NCBI GenBank assembly: GCA_964387845.1
Contig: CAYLXA010000002.1
Location: 128,001-192,000 of the forward strand
From: an uncultured bacterium
GTDB lineage: Bacteria > Omnitrophota > Omnitrophia > Omnitrophales > Abzuiibacteriaceae
DNA length: 64,000 nt
Direction: 5' to 3'
Shown here: positions 2,932 to 64,000 of the stretch, piece after piece
Layout: each line of letters opens with the position of its first letter
Numbering within the stretch: the first letter of the stretch is position 1
The notes under the pieces: model-generated
Told to the model about the DNA's origin: nothing
The model's input: only the letters and a program-made list of their open reading frames with translations
The model's database searches: none
Translations under genes and position numbers: made by a program

Positions 2932-4047
<1,116 letters not shown>

Positions 4048-4084
4048 CCCGGACTACTTTTCTTAAATTCCTAAAGGTGGGGAA

Positions 4085-4381
4085 ATGCTGAAGTTCCGCC
4101 TTCAAGTAATGAGCCTGAAAAGAATCTTGTTTGACGCTGACGTCGAACAAGTTCATATTTTCGGCGATGAGGGCGAGTACGATCTTTTGGCCTATCACTA
4201 CCCTATTATTGGCGCCTTGCCGGAAGGCGAGGTCCACATCAAAGACCACAAAAACATCCCGCTTCGGGCAGGTGTGGCGCTTTTTCGTCAGAACCGCTGC
4301 CTGATTATTATCGAAGAAAAGGATGCGGAAGGCGCACCAACCGACAAGCCTTCCATCAACCCAATAGGCAAGAAAGACTAG
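4085..4381 (+). CDS. F-type ATPase epsilon-subunit-like protein (AtpC N-terminal beta-sandwich domain only), not next to atpD
   Basis: By-eye alignment to AtpC: L.VVS.E..F.G.VE...V.G.EGE.GI...H.PL...L.PG...I..... Good SD (AGGTGG) precedes it. The stop overlaps the cdaA start (TAGATG). Confidence 0.5.
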   Translation: MLKFRLQVMSLKRILFDADVEQVHIFGDEGEYDLLAYHYPIIGALPEGEVHIKDHKNIPLRAGVALFRQNRCLIIIEEKDAEGAPTDKPSINPIGKKD

Positions 4382-5143
4382 ATGTGGCTTTCAGCGTTTG
4401 CTTTTATTGTTTCCATCGTTTTTCTGATCCGCAGTCTTGAAATAATTCCCGGCGGCCAGCCGCTTTTAAATGCATTGGTGTGCCTATTTTCACTGTTAGC
4501 AGCCCTCTTCTTTCTTCCTGGCGAGTTGATTAGTTCGGCAATTTTAGAGGGTTTCGGGTGGTTTGTTGCAATCTTTGCCGGCAGTCTTGTTTTGATTGAA
4601 TTTGTTCAATTGATTTTTAAAAGACTTTTGCGGTGGGGATCGCTCCGATTGCAAACCACGGCCGGTCTTTCTCCGGAACATGACGAAATTTGCAAAGCGC
4701 TTGATCACATGGCAAAGCAGAAAACCGGCGCCCTTATCGTCCTTGAACGTAAAGGATCATTGAAGCATTTGTATGAAAATGGGTTTCAATTCGATAGTGA
4801 TGTTCGAGCTGAAGTCATCATCTCGCTTTTCGACAAAAATTCGCCGTTGCATGACGGCGCAATGATTATCAGCCAAAACCGGATCAAAGCATTAAAAATC
4901 ATCCTTCCATTAACTACGCGTTCTGATGTACCGCTCGGGATCGGGACCCGCCACCGTTCGGCAATCGGCCTGACTGAGACAACGGATGCCATTGCGCTTA
5001 TCTCATCGGAAGAGCGGGGCATGCTAAGCATTTCTTACCAAGGCGCTTTGGTAGTAGCCAACTCTAAAAACCAGTTCGCAGAACTCTTAAAACGAGCACT
5101 GAAGGGCTTTCCGATCATTGAGCCTGTGCAAGAGTCTGACTAA
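4382..5143 (+). CDS. cdaA: Diadenylate cyclase CdaA (c-di-AMP synthase), membrane-anchored
   Basis: Three N-terminal TM helices, then a DAC domain with DGAMII and GTRHRSAIGLTE motifs and ...ISSEERGMLSI. Confidence 0.85.
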   Translation: MWLSAFAFIVSIVFLIRSLEIIPGGQPLLNALVCLFSLLAALFFLPGELISSAILEGFGWFVAIFAGSLVLIEFVQLIFKRLLRWGSLRLQTTAGLSPEHDEICKALDHMAKQKTGALIVLERKGSLKHLYENGFQFDSDVRAEVIISLFDKNSPLHDGAMIISQNRIKALKIILPLTTRSDVPLGIGTRHRSAIGLTETTDAIALISSEERGMLSISYQGALVVANSKNQFAELLKRALKGFPIIEPVQESD

Positions 5144-5158
5144 TTTTGTCATATTTTC

Positions 5159-5186
5159 TTGATTTTCCGCTAAACTCGCGTATAAT
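5159..5186 (+). promoter_or_regulatory. Sigma-70-like promoter (TTGATT-N16-TATAAT) driving a short transcription unit
   Basis: TTGATT at 5159-5164 and TATAAT at 5181-5186, read directly. A strong terminator follows at 5396-5427. Confidence 0.5.
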
Positions 5187-5209
5187 TACATTACTTTTTG
5201 GAAAACTCG

Positions 5210-5359
5210 ATGGAAAACACTCTGAACCTAAAACACTTTAAAAGCAGTGTAAAACCCGCGACAGGCGCCGTGTCGATGGCGTGGTCTATTATGGGCCACG
5301 GCTATTGTCATCGCCGCAAGCTCGTGGGCTTGAAGGAGGTTCAAGCGTTACTATCGTAA
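5210..5359 (+). CDS. Candidate 49-aa small ORF (MENTLNLKHFKSSVKPATGAVSMAWSIMGHGYCHRRKLVGLKEVQALLS) inside the promoter-terminator unit; a non-coding RNA is an alternative
   Basis: The ATG lies ~20 nt after the -10 element with only a weak RBS. It is below the ORF-track length cutoff and was translated by hand. Confidence 0.25.
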   Translation: MENTLNLKHFKSSVKPATGAVSMAWSIMGHGYCHRRKLVGLKEVQALLS

Positions 5360-5395
5360 AGTAGTTTAAAGTAGTAAAAGCAAAATCAACTTAAG

Positions 5396-5427
5396 CCCAT
5401 GGCTGAAATTCAGTCATGGGTTTTTTT
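5396..5427 (+). terminator. Rho-independent terminator
   Basis: cccatggctgaa / ttcagtcatggg stem of ~11 bp with one G-U pair, followed by a TTTTTTT run. Confidence 0.7.
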
Positions 5428-5445
5428 ATTTTCAGGAGGTTTCAG

Positions 5446-5661
5446 ATGAGACAGACAGCAAAGCTGGTCCCAAAAGCCGGCTTCTTTACGGTCAACAAGG
5501 ACCCGGTAAAATTGACGGCCCTTTTATACCTGCGGGAAGCGCTTTTGGCGGAGCAGTATGAAGAGTGCGCCGAATTTGTGCGGATCGCGGAAGAATTCGG
5601 TGCGCACGGGTTTGAAATCCAGAATTTACTGGAAGACCCGAGGCGCATGCCGAAGGCGTGA
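5446..5661 (+). CDS. Small hypothetical protein with a UVR-like motif
   Basis: AGGAGG SD at 5434-5439 then ATG 5446. The LREALLAEQYEECAEFVRIAEEFG stretch resembles the UvrB/UvrC (UVR) interaction motif. The ORF-track start at 5416 lies inside the terminator T-run. Confidence 0.5.
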   Translation: MRQTAKLVPKAGFFTVNKDPVKLTALLYLREALLAEQYEECAEFVRIAEEFGAHGFEIQNLLEDPRRMPKA

Positions 5662-5846
5662 TTTTGGTGCCGGTGTTATGACTTTAACTAATCGCAACTT
5701 GAGATTCCTTGTTCGCCATTGGTTTTTGAAGGGGACGGGTGTGTTCGGGTTTTGTAAAATAGCGCTAGTGTTTATCGGAAGTGAACTATATAATCAAAAA
5801 CAGAAATTATTTTTTACCATTTATTCTATTGACTGCACGATGCCGT

Positions 5847-6221
5847 ATGAATCAAAAAATCGCTCTTTTCCTTTTATTGTCTGTGATTACAAGCTGTTCT
5901 GGAGGGCATGTTCTCGCTAAATGGGCGGTCGTTCAAGCGGAAGACACGTTTGCAAAAGCGTCCGATATGCGCCATGATAAGAACAAGCACGCTGGGCGCA
6001 TCCGCCTTTACGAACGTGCCTGCGCGCAGTTTGTTAAGGCTTATGAATTAGATCCGGGCGTATTTACGCTTTACCGCATTGAAAACGCAATCACCGCCTG
6101 TGCGTGGGCAGAAAACTATGCCGCAAAAGAAATCATGCAGAATTTTGAATTTGATTACATTGATCAACATCCGACCGAAGCCGAATACGGCGATGCCATG
6201 CCGCCCATAAGTTTTGAGTAA
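5847..6221 (+). CDS. Hypothetical lipoprotein
   Basis: MNQKIALFLLLSVITSC signal peptide with a lipobox (ITSC). The ORF-track start at 5781 is upstream of the signal peptide. Confidence 0.55.
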   Translation: MNQKIALFLLLSVITSCSGGHVLAKWAVVQAEDTFAKASDMRHDKNKHAGRIRLYERACAQFVKAYELDPGVFTLYRIENAITACAWAENYAAKEIMQNFEFDYIDQHPTEAEYGDAMPPISFE

Positions 6222-6223
6222 TT

Positions 6224-6916
6224 ATGCCGCCAACGACTCAGAAAAACTTCAAATTATCACCCTCAACGCTAAATTTATTTCTAGACTGTCCAAGGTGTTT
6301 TTGGCTCGAGAAAGTGAAGGGGATCAAGCGGCCGCGCGGCATTTTTCCGTCGCTTCCGGGCGGCATGGACCGCGAAATCAAAAATCATTTTGATATTTTC
6401 CGCGCAAAAAAGAAACTCCCGCCGGAATTGTCATCACCGGTTTTTACGGGCATAAACCTTTTTGATGCTCAAAAACAGCTCGACTTGTGGCGCAATTGGC
6501 GCACCGGTTTGGAATATCATGACGAAGGCGGTAATGTGTTGAGCGGTGCGCTCGATGATCTGCTCGTCCAAGGCGATCTCTACATTCCGTTTGATTACAA
6601 AACGAAAGGCTCGCCGACGACCGAAGAAGATGCGGTCAAATATTATCAAAATCAATTAGACTGTTACACGCTCATGCTGGAAGCCAATGGAATGAAAAGT
6701 GCCGGATTCGGAATTCTTTTGTATTATTCGCCAAAATTAGTTTCAGAAAACGGAAGTGTTGCATTTCAAACACAACCGATTAAAATAGAAACAAAGTCGG
6801 AGCGCGCCAAATCAACCTTTGCGCGCGCCCTTAATTTAGTGAAAGGTCCAATCCCTTCGGTTAATTTTAATTGCGAGTACTGCACCTGGAACAACAAGCT
6901 GCGTGCCGCCAACTGA
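6224..6916 (+). CDS. PD-(D/E)xK nuclease, Cas4/DUF83-like, with a predicted Cys4 Fe-S cluster
   Basis: N-terminal LSPSTLNLFLDCPRCFW (Cas4-like CxxC), a D...D-Y-K catalytic triad (DDLLV...IPFDYKTKG), a QhxxY motif (YYQNQLDCY), and a C-terminal CEYC. Confidence 0.65.
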   Translation: MPPTTQKNFKLSPSTLNLFLDCPRCFWLEKVKGIKRPRGIFPSLPGGMDREIKNHFDIFRAKKKLPPELSSPVFTGINLFDAQKQLDLWRNWRTGLEYHDEGGNVLSGALDDLLVQGDLYIPFDYKTKGSPTTEEDAVKYYQNQLDCYTLMLEANGMKSAGFGILLYYSPKLVSENGSVAFQTQPIKIETKSERAKSTFARALNLVKGPIPSVNFNCEYCTWNNKLRAAN

Positions 6917-6929
6917 GTAAAGGTGTTTT

Positions 6930-7742
6930 ATGAAACCCAATTTTGTTCCGTTTATTATTGCATTCATTGTCATCACATTTATCGCTTCGGGCTGCTCGGT
7001 CAAAGTGATCGAGGACGGCGAAGCGGGCGTCAAGGCAACTCTCGGAAAAATCGAAGACAAGCCACTGGGGCCGGGGTGGTACATTTTCTTTCCGATTGTT
7101 TCTTGGATTGAAAAATGGAACGTAAAAACACAAGAAATAAAAGAAACCGCCAGCGTTCCTTCATCGGAAGGCCTCATTTCCACGCTGGACGTTTCGGTGC
7201 TTTACAATACATCGATTGATAAGGTCGTGTCTGTCCGCACAACAACAGGCTACAATTATAAAGAAATCATCTTGGAGCCCTTTGTCCGCGAGTCAATCCG
7301 CAATGTCGTGAGCGGCTATGAAGTGAAAGCGCTTTTTAGCGAAAAAAGCAGGAAGGAAATCGGAGAAAAAATTCTTCAGTTTCTGAGAGAAAAATTAGAA
7401 AGCCGCGGCATCACGGTCCAGGACGTTCTGTTGCGTGATGTGCGCCTGCCGCAAGCGTTTAGCCAAAGCATCGAAATCAAGCTCAAAACCGAGCAAGAGG
7501 CCCTTCAAAAGGAATTTGAGCTGCAAAAAGCCAAGAAAGACGCTGAAATTGAAGTTGCGCGCGCAGAAGGCGTTGCCAAAAGCAACCGAATCATTGCCGA
7601 CAGCATCAATGAAAACTATCTTCGGTATAAATGGATTCAAGGCCTTCAAAACACGAGCTCTCAAGTGGTTTATGTGCCGACCGAAGCAAACCTTCCGATT
7701 TTAGAGGCAAATCGGTGGAAAGCCGCGGCTGAAAAGAAATAA
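6930..7742 (+). CDS. SPFH/Band-7 (prohibitin/HflK-like) domain lipoprotein
   Basis: Signal peptide with a lipobox (IASGCS), then an SPFH-type core and a coiled-coil EAxQ-rich C-terminus. Confidence 0.7.
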   Translation: MKPNFVPFIIAFIVITFIASGCSVKVIEDGEAGVKATLGKIEDKPLGPGWYIFFPIVSWIEKWNVKTQEIKETASVPSSEGLISTLDVSVLYNTSIDKVVSVRTTTGYNYKEIILEPFVRESIRNVVSGYEVKALFSEKSRKEIGEKILQFLREKLESRGITVQDVLLRDVRLPQAFSQSIEIKLKTEQEALQKEFELQKAKKDAEIEVARAEGVAKSNRIIADSINENYLRYKWIQGLQNTSSQVVYVPTEANLPILEANRWKAAAEKK

Positions 7743-58971: not shown

Positions 58972-60630
58972 CTAAACAGAAACCAGCTTGCCCCCGGGCA
59001 TAGCGCCAATACTTGCCAACTTCCGTTTCGCTAACTTTCCCGCGCTCGAAGACGGCTGTTTTTTGACAAGATGCTTCAGAACCCGAATTCCAAATTCGCG
59101 CAGCTCAAAAAGCTTTTCCGAAAAATGAAACCCAATGTAGTGAAGGTCCTGGGGGCCCACCGTTTTCCGGTCCTTGAGCAAGTTCTTGAAAAATTCATCA
59201 GCATTATTCTTAATCAGCGTCTGACATAGATGCAAAGCCTTATCTTGTTCCCGGAAGCCCGTAGAAAGGTCCTTTTTTGAGGTTTTGAGGCTTAAAACCG
59301 TCATTTCGTACCGTGCGGCATGGGTATACAAGTAACTGTCCTGCAAAAGCGCCAAATACGCGACTGCATCTGCCCATTTGCCCTTCTTTTTCAATGACTG
59401 AGCCTTCGTCATCACATATTTATAAAGGAGGTCTGGGTTAATATTCTTCAGTAATTGAAGGTAATTTCGGTATTTTTCATTCTTCTGCTTAATTAGCTTC
59501 TCTAGTGAATTTAGAAGCTTTTTGCAGAGAGCCGGTTTGAATGCCTTTTTATGTGCCCGTAAAACCGAAATGATTTGATCCGCTTTCTCCGGCGTTAAAT
59601 CGCTTTCGAATATTTTCAGGAGCGGCAACACGGCTTTCGGCATTTTCTCAAGCGACGTTTTGGACGCATCCCGAATCCGGATATCCGGCGAGTTTAAATA
59701 TTCAATCAATGTAGATACGTTCTCCGAGGAATCAAAACTACCCAGCTTGGAAAGCGCATAGCTTCGAATCGAAGCATGCGGGCTGTCCAAGAGTTTTGAA
59801 ATGGGAGACTGCATTTTTTTGGACACTTCGAGAGGCTCAACAACCTGTAAAGCGTATTTCCCCACATTCGCAAAGTCCGCATGATTTAAGACGGGCAGCA
59901 AAACTTTCAGCGCATCATCGTGCCCCTTCCCTTTGAATCCAAGCCGCGAGAGCGCCATTAATGCATACTTGGCGACGAAAATATCTTTGCTTTGGCTTAA
60001 TGCCGACATCAGTGCAGACTTTGACCGCGGGTCCTGAAGATAGCCGATTAAAATCAAACATGAAATCATGAAAGAATTGACTTTCTTGATCTGAGGTTTG
60101 CGCATCAATTTCAACAAAGACTGATTCAGCCATTTCCGCTCCCGCTTATCCATCCGCTCAATCACGGATCGGAACAAATCACAAACAAACTTCAAATGTT
60201 CCACTTCCCTGCTATCCCACAGCGAATCCAAAAGCAATACATAAGCTGCTTTGTTGGGAATCCGTCCAATGGTGGCCAAAATAGCTCTCTTTTCAAACGG
60301 CAGTGCTTTCGGATATCGTTTTTTAAGCGCAGGGATGGCCGAAACCCCATTCACAGCAATCGCCCGGATCACTTTCTCGCGGTTAACTGCCATATCGCTT
60401 AAAAACGGGATCAAATACGGTAGATAATCTTTGGATGGCGATTTGCTCGGAATTTCAAGCAAAGAATCCTTAATGACAGGATCTTGAATTTGGGAGAAAA
60501 GATCCCCAACTGCTTTGGCTAGCAACCGGTCTTTAATGCCGAGTTCTGATAGAACGCGTATAGCGGAAAGCTGTACGTCGCGGTCCTTTGATTTGAGAAG
60601 GCCTAAAATTTTCTTGGCAGTAACGTCCAT
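58972..60630 (-). CDS. HEAT/PBS-lyase-like repeat protein
   Basis: 552 aa, all-helical with repetitive ~30-40 aa units (…ALMALSRLG…, …AIRVLSELG…). Convergent with batC. Confidence 0.6.
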   Translation of the reverse strand: MDVTAKKILGLLKSKDRDVQLSAIRVLSELGIKDRLLAKAVGDLFSQIQDPVIKDSLLEIPSKSPSKDYLPYLIPFLSDMAVNREKVIRAIAVNGVSAIPALKKRYPKALPFEKRAILATIGRIPNKAAYVLLLDSLWDSREVEHLKFVCDLFRSVIERMDKRERKWLNQSLLKLMRKPQIKKVNSFMISCLILIGYLQDPRSKSALMSALSQSKDIFVAKYALMALSRLGFKGKGHDDALKVLLPVLNHADFANVGKYALQVVEPLEVSKKMQSPISKLLDSPHASIRSYALSKLGSFDSSENVSTLIEYLNSPDIRIRDASKTSLEKMPKAVLPLLKIFESDLTPEKADQIISVLRAHKKAFKPALCKKLLNSLEKLIKQKNEKYRNYLQLLKNINPDLLYKYVMTKAQSLKKKGKWADAVAYLALLQDSYLYTHAARYEMTVLSLKTSKKDLSTGFREQDKALHLCQTLIKNNADEFFKNLLKDRKTVGPQDLHYIGFHFSEKLFELREFGIRVLKHLVKKQPSSSAGKLAKRKLASIGAMPGGKLVSV

Positions 60631-60659
60631 GGGTGGGTATTGTACTCAAAATACTGACT

Positions 60660-61556
60660 CTACTCAAGAACCATATCGTCAATGTGCCAGCCGCCCGTCA
60701 AAACACCCGCGCTGCGGGCGACCGTCATCCGAATTTGCTTCAGCAAGAATTCATTCGGAGGTGAATCTTGGTTCTTCCATAATTCAATGTCGTACTTTTT
60801 CCAGAATGTAAAGAAATCGGTTACATCATGCTCGATCATTTCTCCGGAATGCGAAACAAGCTGTATGCGAATGGGCGACATAACCCCTTTGTTATGTTTG
60901 AAATCTGCAAGCAATTTAAACGCAAGTTTGTTAAAACCGCTTATATCGATAAGGGGCAGATCAATGACAAGCGTCGCGACCTCCCCGGGCGCGGCCGTAA
61001 AATCATAAATAACCGCAAGCGCATTGCCATAGGAACCAAAACGTTTATTCGTATCGAACTCAAGATTTAACAAAGAACCCGCGGTGCTGTTGCGGATGGC
61101 GTAGATTTTGGTATTAAAGTTTGTAACAAAATCCGGTCGATTAAAATCCGCAATCATTTGCGGCTTGACTTCACGGACGCTCCCGGCCGGCGTGGCAAGA
61201 TTAAAATCCTTCATTATATTTTGAATAACTTTTTGCTTTTGGCTTGCGCCGTTAGCTTTCGAAATACCGGCTGATCCAGGCCCGGCGTTTGCCCCGGCTG
61301 CGGACTCAACAGTGTTCGGAACAGGTTCGGAATAACTTCGAATCTGGTTGAACATCTTCCATGTCATGATAAATATTACCAGCTGCGCAACAAGAATAAC
61401 GAACGAAAAAATCACAATCGCAGTCCTTTGTTGATTGCCGGGCTGCGGGCTCCGTTCGGCGGATTGGCCGGACACATTCATGCCTGATTCATTCAAAAAA
61501 GGCATCGCTGGAGATTTTTTCACTTTTGGGAATTCGGTCTTTTGCATGGTCATCAT
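60660..61556 (-). CDS. Hypothetical single-pass membrane protein with a large extracytoplasmic domain
   Basis: TM AIVIFSFVILVAQLVIFIM. Start ambiguous: ATG candidates at 61589, 61556, 61553 and 61547; 61556 is chosen to avoid a 31-nt overlap with the cca stop. Confidence 0.5.
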   Translation of the reverse strand: MMTMQKTEFPKVKKSPAMPFLNESGMNVSGQSAERSPQPGNQQRTAIVIFSFVILVAQLVIFIMTWKMFNQIRSYSEPVPNTVESAAGANAGPGSAGISKANGASQKQKVIQNIMKDFNLATPAGSVREVKPQMIADFNRPDFVTNFNTKIYAIRNSTAGSLLNLEFDTNKRFGSYGNALAVIYDFTAAPGEVATLVIDLPLIDISGFNKLAFKLLADFKHNKGVMSPIRIQLVSHSGEMIEHDVTDFFTFWKKYDIELWKNQDSPPNEFLLKQIRMTVARSAGVLTGGWHIDDMVLE

Positions 61557-61558
61557 AA

Positions 61559-62896
61559 TTATCCGCGCTTGAATTGCTTTAAAACCCACTCCATTGTTTT
61601 CTCTTTGTCTTTAAACTTACCTTCCAACTGCATTTCGTAGGCTTGCGCTAAAATTTCTTTAAGTATCGGCCCGGCTATATAGCCCGCCTCAAGCAGATCG
61701 TTCCCGTTGATCAGGGGTTTGGGTTTTAAATTTTCTTTTTGGTATTCCTCGGTCTTTTTTTTGAGAAATTGATAATTATCCAGCTTCCCATGACTGGACT
61801 CACAATCAATTCGGTGCAGCTCCAATTCGGTCTCAAAATTCTCGCGCCCTACAAACTGTTTGAGTTTGCCGACCCGCATCACCTGCACGTCAGCAAATTT
61901 CATATGATTCTCAACGCATGAGAGAATACCATCAATTTCCCGGTTTGAAAACCTTAGGCGCCTTAATATTTTTTCAGCCATTTTGGCGCCAATGTGAGAA
62001 TGGTTATAAAAGGTGATTTTACCCTTTTCCCTGCTGAAAGTGACAGGCTTCCCCACATCATGCAAAAGCGCGCCGAATGCTAAAATAACAGATGGGTTTT
62101 CGAGCTTTTGCAAGAGCAGCTTCGTATGCACAAACACGTCTCCTTCCGGATGAAAATCAGGCTGCTGCTCAACGCCTTTCATAGCTTCTACCTCAGGGAG
62201 AATTATCTTTAAAAGGCCGCTTTCAGATAAAAGATCAAGGCCTCGGTTGGCATTCGGTCGCGTTAAAAGCTTGATTAATTCATCACGGATCCGTTCAGGG
62301 CTGACGACCTCAATGGCCGGCGCTAAACGCTTAACTTCTTTCCATGTCGCAGGTTCAATTTTAAACCCCAAGTTTGCGGCAAACCGGATAGCCCGCAAAA
62401 GCCGGAGCTTGTCTTCCTCAAATCTATCAGCCGGCTTTCCAATGGTCCGGATTATCTGTCTCTGGATGTCTTCCCTGCCGCCCACATGGTCAATTAATTC
62501 CTCTTTCAACGGATCATAAAAGAGGCCATTCATCGTAAAATCGCGGCGTTTAGCATCTTCTGCCGGAGAAGTAAACGAAACGCTTGAGGGGTGCCTGCCG
62601 TCCAAATAACGGCCTTCAGATCGAAAGGTGGCAACTTCGAACGGAATTTCATCTTCTAAGACAATCACAACACCAAACTGCTTACCCACGGGGATTGTCT
62701 TTTTGAACAGTTTCTCGATTTCCTCTGGCCGGGCGGTTGTGGCAATATCGAAATCCTCCGGCTCTTGCTTCATGACAAGATCGCGCACGCAGCCACCCGC
62801 GAACAAAGCCGTAAAACCGCTATTTCGCAGCGTTTTAACAATCTCAGTCGCTGTTTTCCGTACAAGGTCTGTACTTTTGGCTGGTTTTTTAGTCAT
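61559..62896 (-). CDS. cca: CCA tRNA nucleotidyltransferase / poly(A) polymerase family with an HD domain
   Basis: N-terminal Pol-beta NTase motif LFAGGCVRDLVM...DFDIAT and an HD motif (ALLHDVGK). Confidence 0.85.
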   Translation of the reverse strand: MTKKPAKSTDLVRKTATEIVKTLRNSGFTALFAGGCVRDLVMKQEPEDFDIATTARPEEIEKLFKKTIPVGKQFGVVIVLEDEIPFEVATFRSEGRYLDGRHPSSVSFTSPAEDAKRRDFTMNGLFYDPLKEELIDHVGGREDIQRQIIRTIGKPADRFEEDKLRLLRAIRFAANLGFKIEPATWKEVKRLAPAIEVVSPERIRDELIKLLTRPNANRGLDLLSESGLLKIILPEVEAMKGVEQQPDFHPEGDVFVHTKLLLQKLENPSVILAFGALLHDVGKPVTFSREKGKITFYNHSHIGAKMAEKILRRLRFSNREIDGILSCVENHMKFADVQVMRVGKLKQFVGRENFETELELHRIDCESSHGKLDNYQFLKKKTEEYQKENLKPKPLINGNDLLEAGYIAGPILKEILAQAYEMQLEGKFKDKEKTMEWVLKQFKRG

Positions 62897-63165
62897 CGAA
62901 TATCGAATGCTGTTAGTTGTAAATCCGGTGATTCCCTCACAATTTCCACGGAATCAACCCGTGCACCGCTTGGCCCTTTCCGGCACCAGTCGATTAATTG
63001 AACGACCATGGCTTCATCGCCTTGAATCCACGCTTCGACACTGCCGTTTGAAAGATTTCGAACATAGCCATGAAGCCCGCGTTTGCGCGCTTCATGAACC
63101 GTGCGCGCCCTAAAGAACACGCCTTGCACAAGCCCTTTAATTGAAATTCTTGCCGCCGATATCAT
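62893..63165 (-). CDS. acyP: Acylphosphatase
   Basis: VQGVFFR and GYVRNLSNGSVE motifs, 90 aa. Confidence 0.85.
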   Translation of the reverse strand: MISAARISIKGLVQGVFFRARTVHEARKRGLHGYVRNLSNGSVEAWIQGDEAMVVQLIDWCRKGPSGARVDSVEIVRESPDLQLTAFDIR

Positions 63166-63172
63166 ACCTCTG

Positions 63173-64000
63173 CTAAATCGTCTTCAATCGTCTCACTACC
63201 AAAAGCCCCGACAATGTAAAAAATGCAATCGCCACGATCATTAAATGCAGTCCGATTTTTTCAAACAAAATACCACCTACGAAAGTACTGACCGCACTTG
63301 CCAGATTTTGTATGCTCATCAACACAGCAAACAGCGAACTTTCTACGCCTGTGGAATTCGCTAATTTTGCGGCAGATGAAACAAGCGGCAAAATGCTGAT
63401 ATAGCCTAAAATGCCGCACATGACGAAGATCAAAATTGCCGATGTTTTGTTATGAATCAGGCTGCAGGATAAAATTGCCAAAAAACCCACTGCGATTGCC
63501 ATCCCGAGCGCATATTTTAGCCGCATTTGCTTCAAAAACTTCAAATAAATAAAACAGCCGATGATCGCCCCGCCCCATGTCACGCTGCTCAAAATTCCGA
63601 GAAACTGCTCGCTGAAGCCCAGGGTTTCGCGCATATAAAAGAAAAGCGGCGTGGCGAGCGCTGCCGAACCTGATGCAATCACGATAAATAATGAGAACCA
63701 AAGCAAATCACCGGAAAACAGAAATTTGACGCATTGGGCAAGCGGCTGCAGGATGTTGATGGTCGGCTTTGCGCGGGTTTTCTGCTCCAAATAAAATGAT
63801 AACGCCATGATTGAAACGATGGGAAGCAGCGCGGTCCATAAAAATATAAGCCGGTATTCGTATTTTCCCGCCACATAACCGCCCAAGACACCGCTAATGA
63901 GGGCTCCGGCACTGCGCATACCCCAAGCGATACTTTGATAAATTTGAGAGGTTTGCTCGGTTGAATGCTCAACCACAATTCCATCGGTTACCACATCGAT
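63173..64000 (-). CDS. MFS transporter, C-terminal part; the N-terminus lies beyond the window end
   Basis: Multiple TM helices with an MFS-like pattern. The frame is open to the window edge. Confidence 0.6.
   Translation of the reverse strand: MDVVTDGIVVEHSTEQTSQIYQSIAWGMRSAGALISGVLGGYVAGKYEYRLIFLWTALLPIVSIMALSFYLEQKTRAKPTINILQPLAQCVKFLFSGDLLWFSLFIVIASGSAALATPLFFYMRETLGFSEQFLGILSSVTWGGAIIGCFIYLKFLKQMRLKYALGMAIAVGFLAILSCSLIHNKTSAILIFVMCGILGYISILPLVSSAAKLANSTGVESSLFAVLMSIQNLASAVSTFVGGILFEKIGLHLMIVAIAFFTLSGLLVVRRLKTI

Follow-up and report, generated by a model that had tools for sequence, protein, structure and literature searches.

A putative ribosome-dependent transcription attenuator ahead of a 71-aa protein gene in Omnitrophota

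Between a cdaA gene and the next coding sequence of an uncultured bacterium of the phylum Omnitrophota lies a short piece of DNA that, taken alone, looks complete: a promoter, a structured interval and a strong terminator. What is such a unit for? It occupies positions 5159-5427 of the stretch that we analysed (contig CAYLXA010000002.1, positions 128,001 to 192,000; 64,000 nt, hereafter the window). A first-pass annotation, made from the letters alone, had read it as a self-contained unit specifying a small RNA (sRNA) or a 49-aa protein. Its observation was confirmed, and its interpretation is partly supported: comparison with relatives suggests that 5159-5445 supplies the 71-aa gene behind it with promoter and 5′ leader, and that the leader is probably a ribosome-dependent transcription attenuator. 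We know of no genetic system for Omnitrophota and of almost no described regulatory RNAs in them, and a literature search on leader peptides, attenuation, riboswitches and sRNAs in Omnitrophica/Omnitrophota found nothing specific.

The promoter, terminator, open reading frame (ORF) and short hairpins of the first-pass annotation were all found where it had placed them. The parts of the unit and the gene behind it are as follows, with SD for Shine-Dalgarno and RBS for ribosome-binding site.

5159-5186, + strand: sigma-70-type promoter; -35 TTGATT at 5159-5164, N16 spacer, -10 TATAAT at 5181-5186
5210-5359, + strand: leader ORF of 49 codons; ATG at 5210, TAA at 5357-5359, weak SD GGAAAA
5233-5237 with 5246-5250: hairpin acact/agtgt, present in the sequence
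5255-5262, + strand: region 1, CCCGCGAC (family consensus CCCAUGAC); putative anti-antiterminator strand, partner of region 2
5264-5319, + strand: apical hairpin region of variable length, from folds and alignment
5321-5331, + strand: region 2, CUCGUGGGCUU (consensus GGUCRUGGGCUU); near copy of the terminator 3′ half
5328-5346: hairpin gcttgaa-GGAGG-ttcaagc, present in the sequence
5333-5340, + strand: SD-like motif AAGGAGGU, inside the ORF and 16 nt upstream of the leader stop codon
5393-5430, + strand: intrinsic terminator; region 3 AAGCCCAUGGCUGA at 5393-5406, loop at 5407-5409, region 4 UCAGUCAUGGGUUU at 5410-5423, U tract from 5421
5434-5661, + strand: downstream gene of 71 aa; RBS AGGAGG at 5434-5439, ATG at 5446, stop at 5659-5661

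The promoter matches the consensus at 10 of 12 positions and is the top promoter-like site within 3500-7500, as fits the near-consensus sigma-70 promoter first described; it is also kept in the relatives L071 and L074, and transcription is predicted to start near 5193. Family-wide, 79% of the 57 members have a promoter-like site matching at 9 or more of 12 positions, 12-30 nt upstream of the start of the leader ORF; among 251 control windows 3.6% do. The terminator is as strong as had been claimed, with a stem of 14 pairs (5393-5423) followed by seven T, and is the strongest terminator-like site within 3500-7500. Only about 20 nt separate the end of the unit from the next start codon (ATG 5446), which argues that 5159-5427 is the 5′ leader of the 71-aa gene and not a free-standing unit.

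With homologues of the 71-aa protein as anchors, we retrieved 80 metagenomic loci and searched them with nhmmer. A model built from three sequences detected the element in about 40, and one iteration raised this to 72; with two further copies recognised by eye (L145, L149), 74 loci carry it. It is always on the strand of the 71-aa gene, ending 12-214 nt ahead of its start codon, and in compact loci, the window among them, 24-40 nt lie between terminator and start codon. The window holds one copy, and the element had no match in 69 cdaA loci of other phyla. L139, with next to no sequence ahead of the gene, and L152, whose 210 nt showed no element, are uninformative.

No neighbour other than the element/71-aa pair is conserved across the 80 loci. 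In a tblastn search of these loci, the neighbours seen in the window (cdaA, GAPDH, a PD-(D/E)XK gene and others) were nearby only in the close relative L076; the gene downstream of the 71-aa gene is convergent in many loci, and the 71-aa gene is often monocistronic. Judged by this comparison, the conserved unit is promoter, leader, terminator and 71-aa gene together, and the leader/gene pair appears to be conserved across the uncultured phylum Omnitrophota. The proposed tie to the cyclic di-AMP locus did not hold, being lineage-specific: cdaA lies nearby in one of the 80 loci. Synteny with cdaA was considered as a meaningful signal and dropped, as the gene adjoins the element only in the closest relatives; the position beside it is incidental.

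To compare the leaders themselves we aligned 57 sequences with MAFFT (alignment A3; 32 clusters below 80% identity). Four blocks recur, with the consensus CCCAUGAC for region 1, GGUCRUGGGCUU for region 2, AAGCCCAYGAUC for region 3 and GAUCRUGGGCUUUUUU for region 4. The RUGGG of region 2 is invariant, as is the terminator base GCCCAY/RUGGGC, and length variation is concentrated in the apical hairpin region (6 nt between the window and L071; insertions of 12 nt and 21 nt in other members). At the base of the apical hairpin a conserved Trp codon, UGG at 5282-5284, pairs with CCA. These blocks can form helices that share strands, and for each we scored the fraction of alignment cells able to pair and the number of pairs with compensatory changes:

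Terminator, 3:4: 93.5% of cells paired; 9 of 13 pairs compensatory
Antiterminator, 2:3 (5322-5331 with 5393-5402): 91.6% of cells paired; 6 of 12 pairs compensatory
Helix 1:2 (in the window 5255-5262 with 5321-5328): 82.6% of cells paired; 2 of 8 pairs compensatory
Local hairpin 1:1′ (region 1 with a GUCAUGG just downstream, in most relatives): 74-92% paired by sub-helix; 5 of 7 pairs compensatory

The terminator and the antiterminator thus both have compensatory pairs in orthologous regions, and their common strand can be followed through single positions: columns 337 (region 2), 446 (region 3) and 477 (region 4) of A3 co-vary, reading C-G-C in 29 sequences and U-A-U in 9. The alternative helices were specified by hand from the conserved blocks, a choice that leans towards the hypothesis we favour. 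Sliding the 3′ partner by 1-3 columns lowered pairing to 27-45% overall and to 27-42% for helix 2:3, which argues against the hand-specified helices being an artefact. A conserved antiterminator that competes with the terminator implies that read-through is what the unit is designed for, and with it, and with the tie to the 71-aa gene in about 74 of 80 loci, the reading as a self-contained unit falls.

In the window, the antiterminator duplex 2:3 (-21.2 kcal/mol) and the terminator hairpin alone (-20.6 kcal/mol) are isoenergetic; the 1:2 duplex (-12.5 kcal/mol) is part of the minimum free energy (MFE) structure. The RNA 5192-5430 has an MFE of -88.1 kcal/mol, where 200 dinucleotide shuffles gave -57.7 +/- 4.3 and none was as stable (z = -7.06). 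Its fold is a rod of about 185 nt, opened by a large internal bubble, with the terminator behind it. For the full free RNA of the window the MFE structure is rod plus terminator (-86.7 kcal/mol), about 12 kcal/mol more stable than the fold with the antiterminator imposed; the antiterminator becomes the MFE structure once the 5′ strand is masked while region 4 is still to be transcribed. The individual folds of relatives have a mean z of -2.4, so the extreme rod of the window is partly a lineage feature. A lower stem, formed by the 5′ part of the ORF and the segment past region 2, is long and perfect, in differing sequences, in several lineages (L083-85, L093, L095, L135).

What could mask the 5′ strand? 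The leader ORF (5210-5359) covers region 1, the apical hairpin, region 2 and the SD-like motif, and its conservation is the second line of evidence. Every informative copy has an ATG ORF, 42-64 codons long, with GTG as the start in L110; counted over distinct copies, the frame is open in all 59 that are informative. Of the aligned members, 57 of 57 have an ORF that spans region 2 and runs to 40 codons or more, against 9.7% of dinucleotide shuffles, and the other two frames contain 198 and 119 stops. Regions 1 and 2 are both inside the ORF in all members. The distance from start codon to region 1 is a multiple of 3 (45 nt in most members); the frame in which the ORF passes the invariant GGG of region 2 (0, 1 or 2) depends on the lineage. 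Yet the leader stop always falls 10-32 nt (median 25) past region 2 and 23-48 nt before region 3.

Substitution patterns point the same way. We compared the proportions of synonymous (pS) and non-synonymous (pN) sites that differ in the leader with those in the adjacent 71-aa gene for the same genome pairs:

Group A: pS 0.155 in the leader, 0.386 in the gene; pN/pS 0.43 in the leader, 0.21 in the gene
L071/L074: pS 0.22 in the leader, 0.85 in the gene; pN/pS 0.59 in the leader, 0.10 in the gene
Group C: pS 0.16 in the leader, 0.29 in the gene; pN/pS 0.43 in the leader, 0.11 in the gene

Synonymous sites of the leader are thus 2-4 times more conserved than those of its neighbour. The conserved residues (Pro, Met, Trp, Cys, His, Gly) fall in the paired motifs CCCAUG, GUCAUGG, GUGG/CCAC and RUGGG, the enrichment in Cys, Met and Trp follows the UG-rich paired motifs, and region 1 still pairs with region 2 in lineages where its CCC has drifted to CUA (Pro to Leu). 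The frame differences and the constrained synonymous sites together argue that selection acts on translation as such and not on the peptide. That frame and stop are kept while the frame shifts against an invariant RNA core lets the two kinds of selection be told apart here. Of the earlier proposal of a 49-aa ORF with a poor RBS, the ORF therefore stands, being open in every informative relative, and the micro-protein with a function of its own probably does not. The 49-aa product of the window has no exact match in the protein collection and no Pfam or NCBIfam match. In L071 (3814-3969) and L074 (3820-3975) the leader ORF has been called automatically as a hypothetical protein of 51 aa; such calls are probably regulatory leaders.

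The end of the ORF has a further feature. The SD-like motif AAGGAGGU, counted at 5 nt or more, lies within 40 nt upstream of the leader stop in 49 of 58 members, mostly at 7-18 nt, and with the stop codon in the A site its distance from the P site is that usual for a Shine-Dalgarno sequence. The same motif doubles as the 3′ strand of the lower stem (P0) and as the loop of the local hairpin 5328-5346, and it may be selected to hold ribosomes or as a stem strand.

The leader thus has the parts of an attenuator: a short ORF between promoter and gene, a terminator with a strand-sharing antiterminator, and an ORF that overlaps the deciding strands. With three mutually exclusive helices, an open ORF and linkage to the gene established by comparison, we take the ribosome to be the likely effector. 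In an untranslated leader, the 5′ half including region 1 would pair with the 3′ half including region 2 into the long rod, leaving region 3 to region 4; the terminator would then stop the polymerase at the U tract, yielding a transcript of about 235 nt. A ribosome on the 49-codon ORF would unwind the rod and, with the 5′ strand or the lower stem open, free region 2 to capture region 3 as it emerges. The resulting antiterminator (10-14 bp, about -21 kcal/mol) would block the terminator, and the polymerase would read into the 71-aa gene.

Control could be exerted in two ways. In the classical version, a stall upstream of region 2 would give read-through. In the other, a ribosome at the stop codon, held by the SD-like motif, would keep region 2 exposed, again with read-through; the stop codon is so placed that termination there would leave the antiterminator strand accessible, and the SD-like motif precedes it. 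Pushed to its limit, this second version would make the leader a phylum-wide sensor of translation status, in which the ORF only delivers a ribosome to a precisely placed stop, where the SD-like motif holds it with the lower stem open and region 2 exposed. We consider this extension rather unlikely. Were it true, read-through into the 71-aa gene would report available, active ribosomes, which would cast the 71-aa protein as a regulator linked to translational capacity in ultra-small, possibly host-dependent bacteria.

Several observations weigh against an attenuator driven by the ribosome. Four loci (L080, L081, L104, L132) have the 71-aa gene with at least 330 nt upstream but no leader, and by that comparison the gene is not always under attenuator control. 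RNAalifold on A3 recovers the terminator only, the centre being poorly aligned; the covariation counts include related sequences; and the lower stem has a mean z of just -1.0 family-wide. The likeness of region 1 to 3 and of 2 to 4 could mimic the 2:3 covariation if two hairpins were kept alike as the binding sites of one protein. On the side of the ribosome, the ORF runs through region 2, unlike that of trpL, so that the classical logic does not transfer directly, and a ribosome at the leader stop would not cover region 2, a median of 25 nt away. Nor are there tandem regulatory codons: the 32 cluster representatives have only doublets, of many residues, with a Trp doublet once. The leader pN/pS is below 1, and Trp, Cys and His occur in 32 of 32 cluster representatives, which would allow for a degree of selection on the peptide, although the codons in question belong to paired RNA motifs. 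The whole of the evidence, finally, is sequence comparison.

The repeated like hairpins would be explained by a switch that responds to a protein or ligand. Here the CCCAUG...CAUGGG hairpins would be bound by a small molecule or by a protein with affinity for RNA, possibly the 71-aa product in autoregulation; the bound factor would select terminator or antiterminator, and translation of the ORF would be secondary, for example clearing or refolding the leader. Up to three like stems share the invariant core (1:1′, 1:2 or 2:3, and 3:4), the terminator base is invariant beyond what pairing needs, regulatory codons were not found, and the regulated product is a small three-helix protein that always accompanies the element. 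In riboswitch terms an expression platform is present. However, the invariant nucleotides lie only in the switching helices; no aptamer-like conserved junction was seen, the RNA centre varying in length and sequence; no known class was matched and Rfam gave no match; and the 71-aa model has no recognisable RNA-binding fold. A bound switch would also leave unexplained why the ORF is kept open through region 2 despite its frame changes, and why its stop is so tightly placed. We therefore think such a switch unlikely.

A free-standing or dual-function sRNA, in which the terminated transcript of about 235 nt would act in trans by base pairing or protein sequestration, is close to what was first proposed, and part of that proposal survives: the RNA is structured and uncatalogued. 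It has its own promoter and strong terminator, a very stable fold (z = -7.06 in the window) and conservation at the nucleotide level, and trans-acting transcripts derived from attenuators have been reported elsewhere, an example being the trpL attenuator and leader peptide of S. meliloti. Against it, the 24-40 nt of the compact loci leave no space for a separate downstream promoter, the element stays next to the 71-aa gene and in the same orientation although all other neighbours change, and the folds of relatives are far less extreme. The ORF is conserved, and the conserved antiterminator would have no purpose in a constitutive sRNA. We judge a purely free-standing sRNA very unlikely and the RNA most likely a cis-acting translated leader, whose terminated transcript could have an additional role in trans.

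Least probable to our minds is an ordinary small-protein gene at 5210-5359, co-transcribed with the 71-aa gene, its product acting in trans and perhaps partnering the 71-aa protein, the hairpins being mRNA structure and the terminator only setting the product ratio: the universally conserved ORF with its ATG/GTG start, usually recognisable SD, pN below pS (0.43-0.59), Trp, Cys and His in every cluster representative and N-terminal 15 codons of fixed length would suit it, but the C-terminal half lies in three frames relative to the RNA core and so is not homologous as protein, synonymous sites are too conserved, the conserved residues coincide with paired motifs that survive the CCC to CUA drift, no Pfam or NCBIfam family matches, and the covarying antiterminator is left without a reason.

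The attenuator that we favour belongs to no catalogued family, in keeping with the first-pass annotation, which could not match the RNA to a known one. At the Rfam gathering score no family matched anywhere in the window, and none matched the leaders of 20 relatives; in E-value mode, 5100-5500 gave only sub-threshold matches driven by the terminator (His_leader at 27 bits against 49, trpB motif at 25 against 59). ARAGORN found no tRNA or transfer-messenger RNA. 6S RNA, first suspected from the MFE rod, has in common with the window's copy a rod-like shape with a large internal bubble; it was rejected, since Rfam, which would include the 6S models, gave no match even up to E 10, the ORF is conserved and the rod is weak in relatives, and the element here is tied in cis to a downstream gene. 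An amino-acid-sensing leader was likewise rejected, for want of codon runs, of an Rfam model at gathering score and of a biosynthetic gene downstream.

Among studied attenuators, the trpL, hisL, leuL, thrL and pheL leaders share with this one a short promoter-proximal ORF and the helices 1:2, 2:3 and 3:4, with 3:4 as intrinsic terminator; region 1 resembles 3 and region 2 resembles 4. They differ in having tandem regulatory codons and biosynthetic genes, in a leader stop between regions 1 and 2, where that of the present leader is past region 2, and in phylum, being from Proteobacteria and not Omnitrophota; the His_leader score comes from the terminator alone. In the pyrL leader of the enterobacterial pyrBI operon, an ORF of about 44 codons, the outcome is set by how close the ribosome is to RNA polymerase and not by a cognate amino acid. 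There, however, the ORF runs through the attenuator hairpin, the ribosome blocks it physically and UTP-dependent pausing does the sensing, whereas here the ORF ends before the terminator and a separate antiterminator covaries.

By analogy of design, the closest experimentally studied leader appears to be bmrB (yheJ) of the Bacillus subtilis bmrCD operon, a 53-codon leader ORF with anti-antiterminator, antiterminator and terminator whose translation is reported as required for read-through (PMC4191407). It too has a long leader ORF (53 against 49 codons) encoding the anti-antiterminator and antiterminator strands, control by an intrinsic terminator, and dependence on translation of the ORF itself and not on a run of cognate codons. 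In bmrB, however, the terminator is inside the ORF, whereas our ORF ends 23-48 nt before it, and the leader controls a multidrug ATP-binding cassette (ABC) transporter in response to ribosome-targeting antibiotics where we find a 71-aa gene (PMC4191407). The two show no sequence relationship, and an SD-like motif before the leader stop is not known as a feature of bmrB. The element is a new family, with a new geometry, of a well-known kind of regulator, and as yet no new principle.

The gene that the leader would control has 158 homologues, the named ones from Omnitrophica metagenome-assembled genomes. Their near-invariant core is PVKLTALLYLREALL...YEEC...A.EFGA...E...LLEDPRR.P, with a near-invariant Cys (C41). 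AlphaFold2 models the 71-aa protein as three helices (pLDDT, the predicted local distance difference test, of 79). No Pfam or NCBIfam family includes it, and Foldseek found no match to its model in the PDB at E of 0.001 or less. Neither these family searches nor the fold searches revealed a recognisable resistance function; the fold searches returned only a weak, repeated likeness to helices of the AhpD/carboxymuconolactone-decarboxylase type. As the sole conserved neighbour of the family in contigs assigned to Omnitrophota, the leader marks the protein as tightly regulated, and identifying what switches the leader would be a way to learn what the protein does.

Sampling of the window's lineage is very thin. 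A collection of 5.8 billion proteins holds three relatives of the flanking CdaA, at 65-67% identity and with the same gene order on their contigs, and the species representatives of the Genome Taxonomy Database hold no CdaA relative above 47%, those found being from other phyla. In two relatives whose flanking CdaA are 65-67% identical, the intergenic DNA is about 85-89% identical, far above the flanking genes.

Two variations on the unit were seen in other lineages. Five loci (L119, 2252-2450; L127, 2267-2450; L131, 2251-2453; L137, 2249-2450; L151, 1210-1413) have 90-214 nt between terminator and 71-aa gene, and in this sub-lineage the spacer contains GC-rich palindromes, for example GGATCCGCCACAAAGCGTTGGCGGATTT and CCCCGCCGCTTTCTTGCGAAAGCAAGAGGCGGGG, which could be insertions like repetitive extragenic palindromic (REP) elements or a second regulatory layer. 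In L082, a match to the Rfam cspA thermoregulator (1799-2203; 78.8 bits against a cut-off of 78) lies directly upstream of the leader copy.

Within the window, a 98-aa ORF at 4085-4381 (+ strand) matches only the N-terminal beta-sandwich domain of ATP synthase epsilon (PF02823, E 2e-10), with no other ATP synthase genes near it. Its stop directly abuts the start of the cdaA-like DAC gene (4382-5143), and the pair is also present in L071, L074 and L076. Practically all long ORFs lie on the + strand over about 58 kb (257-58896), a remarkably long run in one orientation, and those of the last 5 kb or so (58972-63994) on the - strand.

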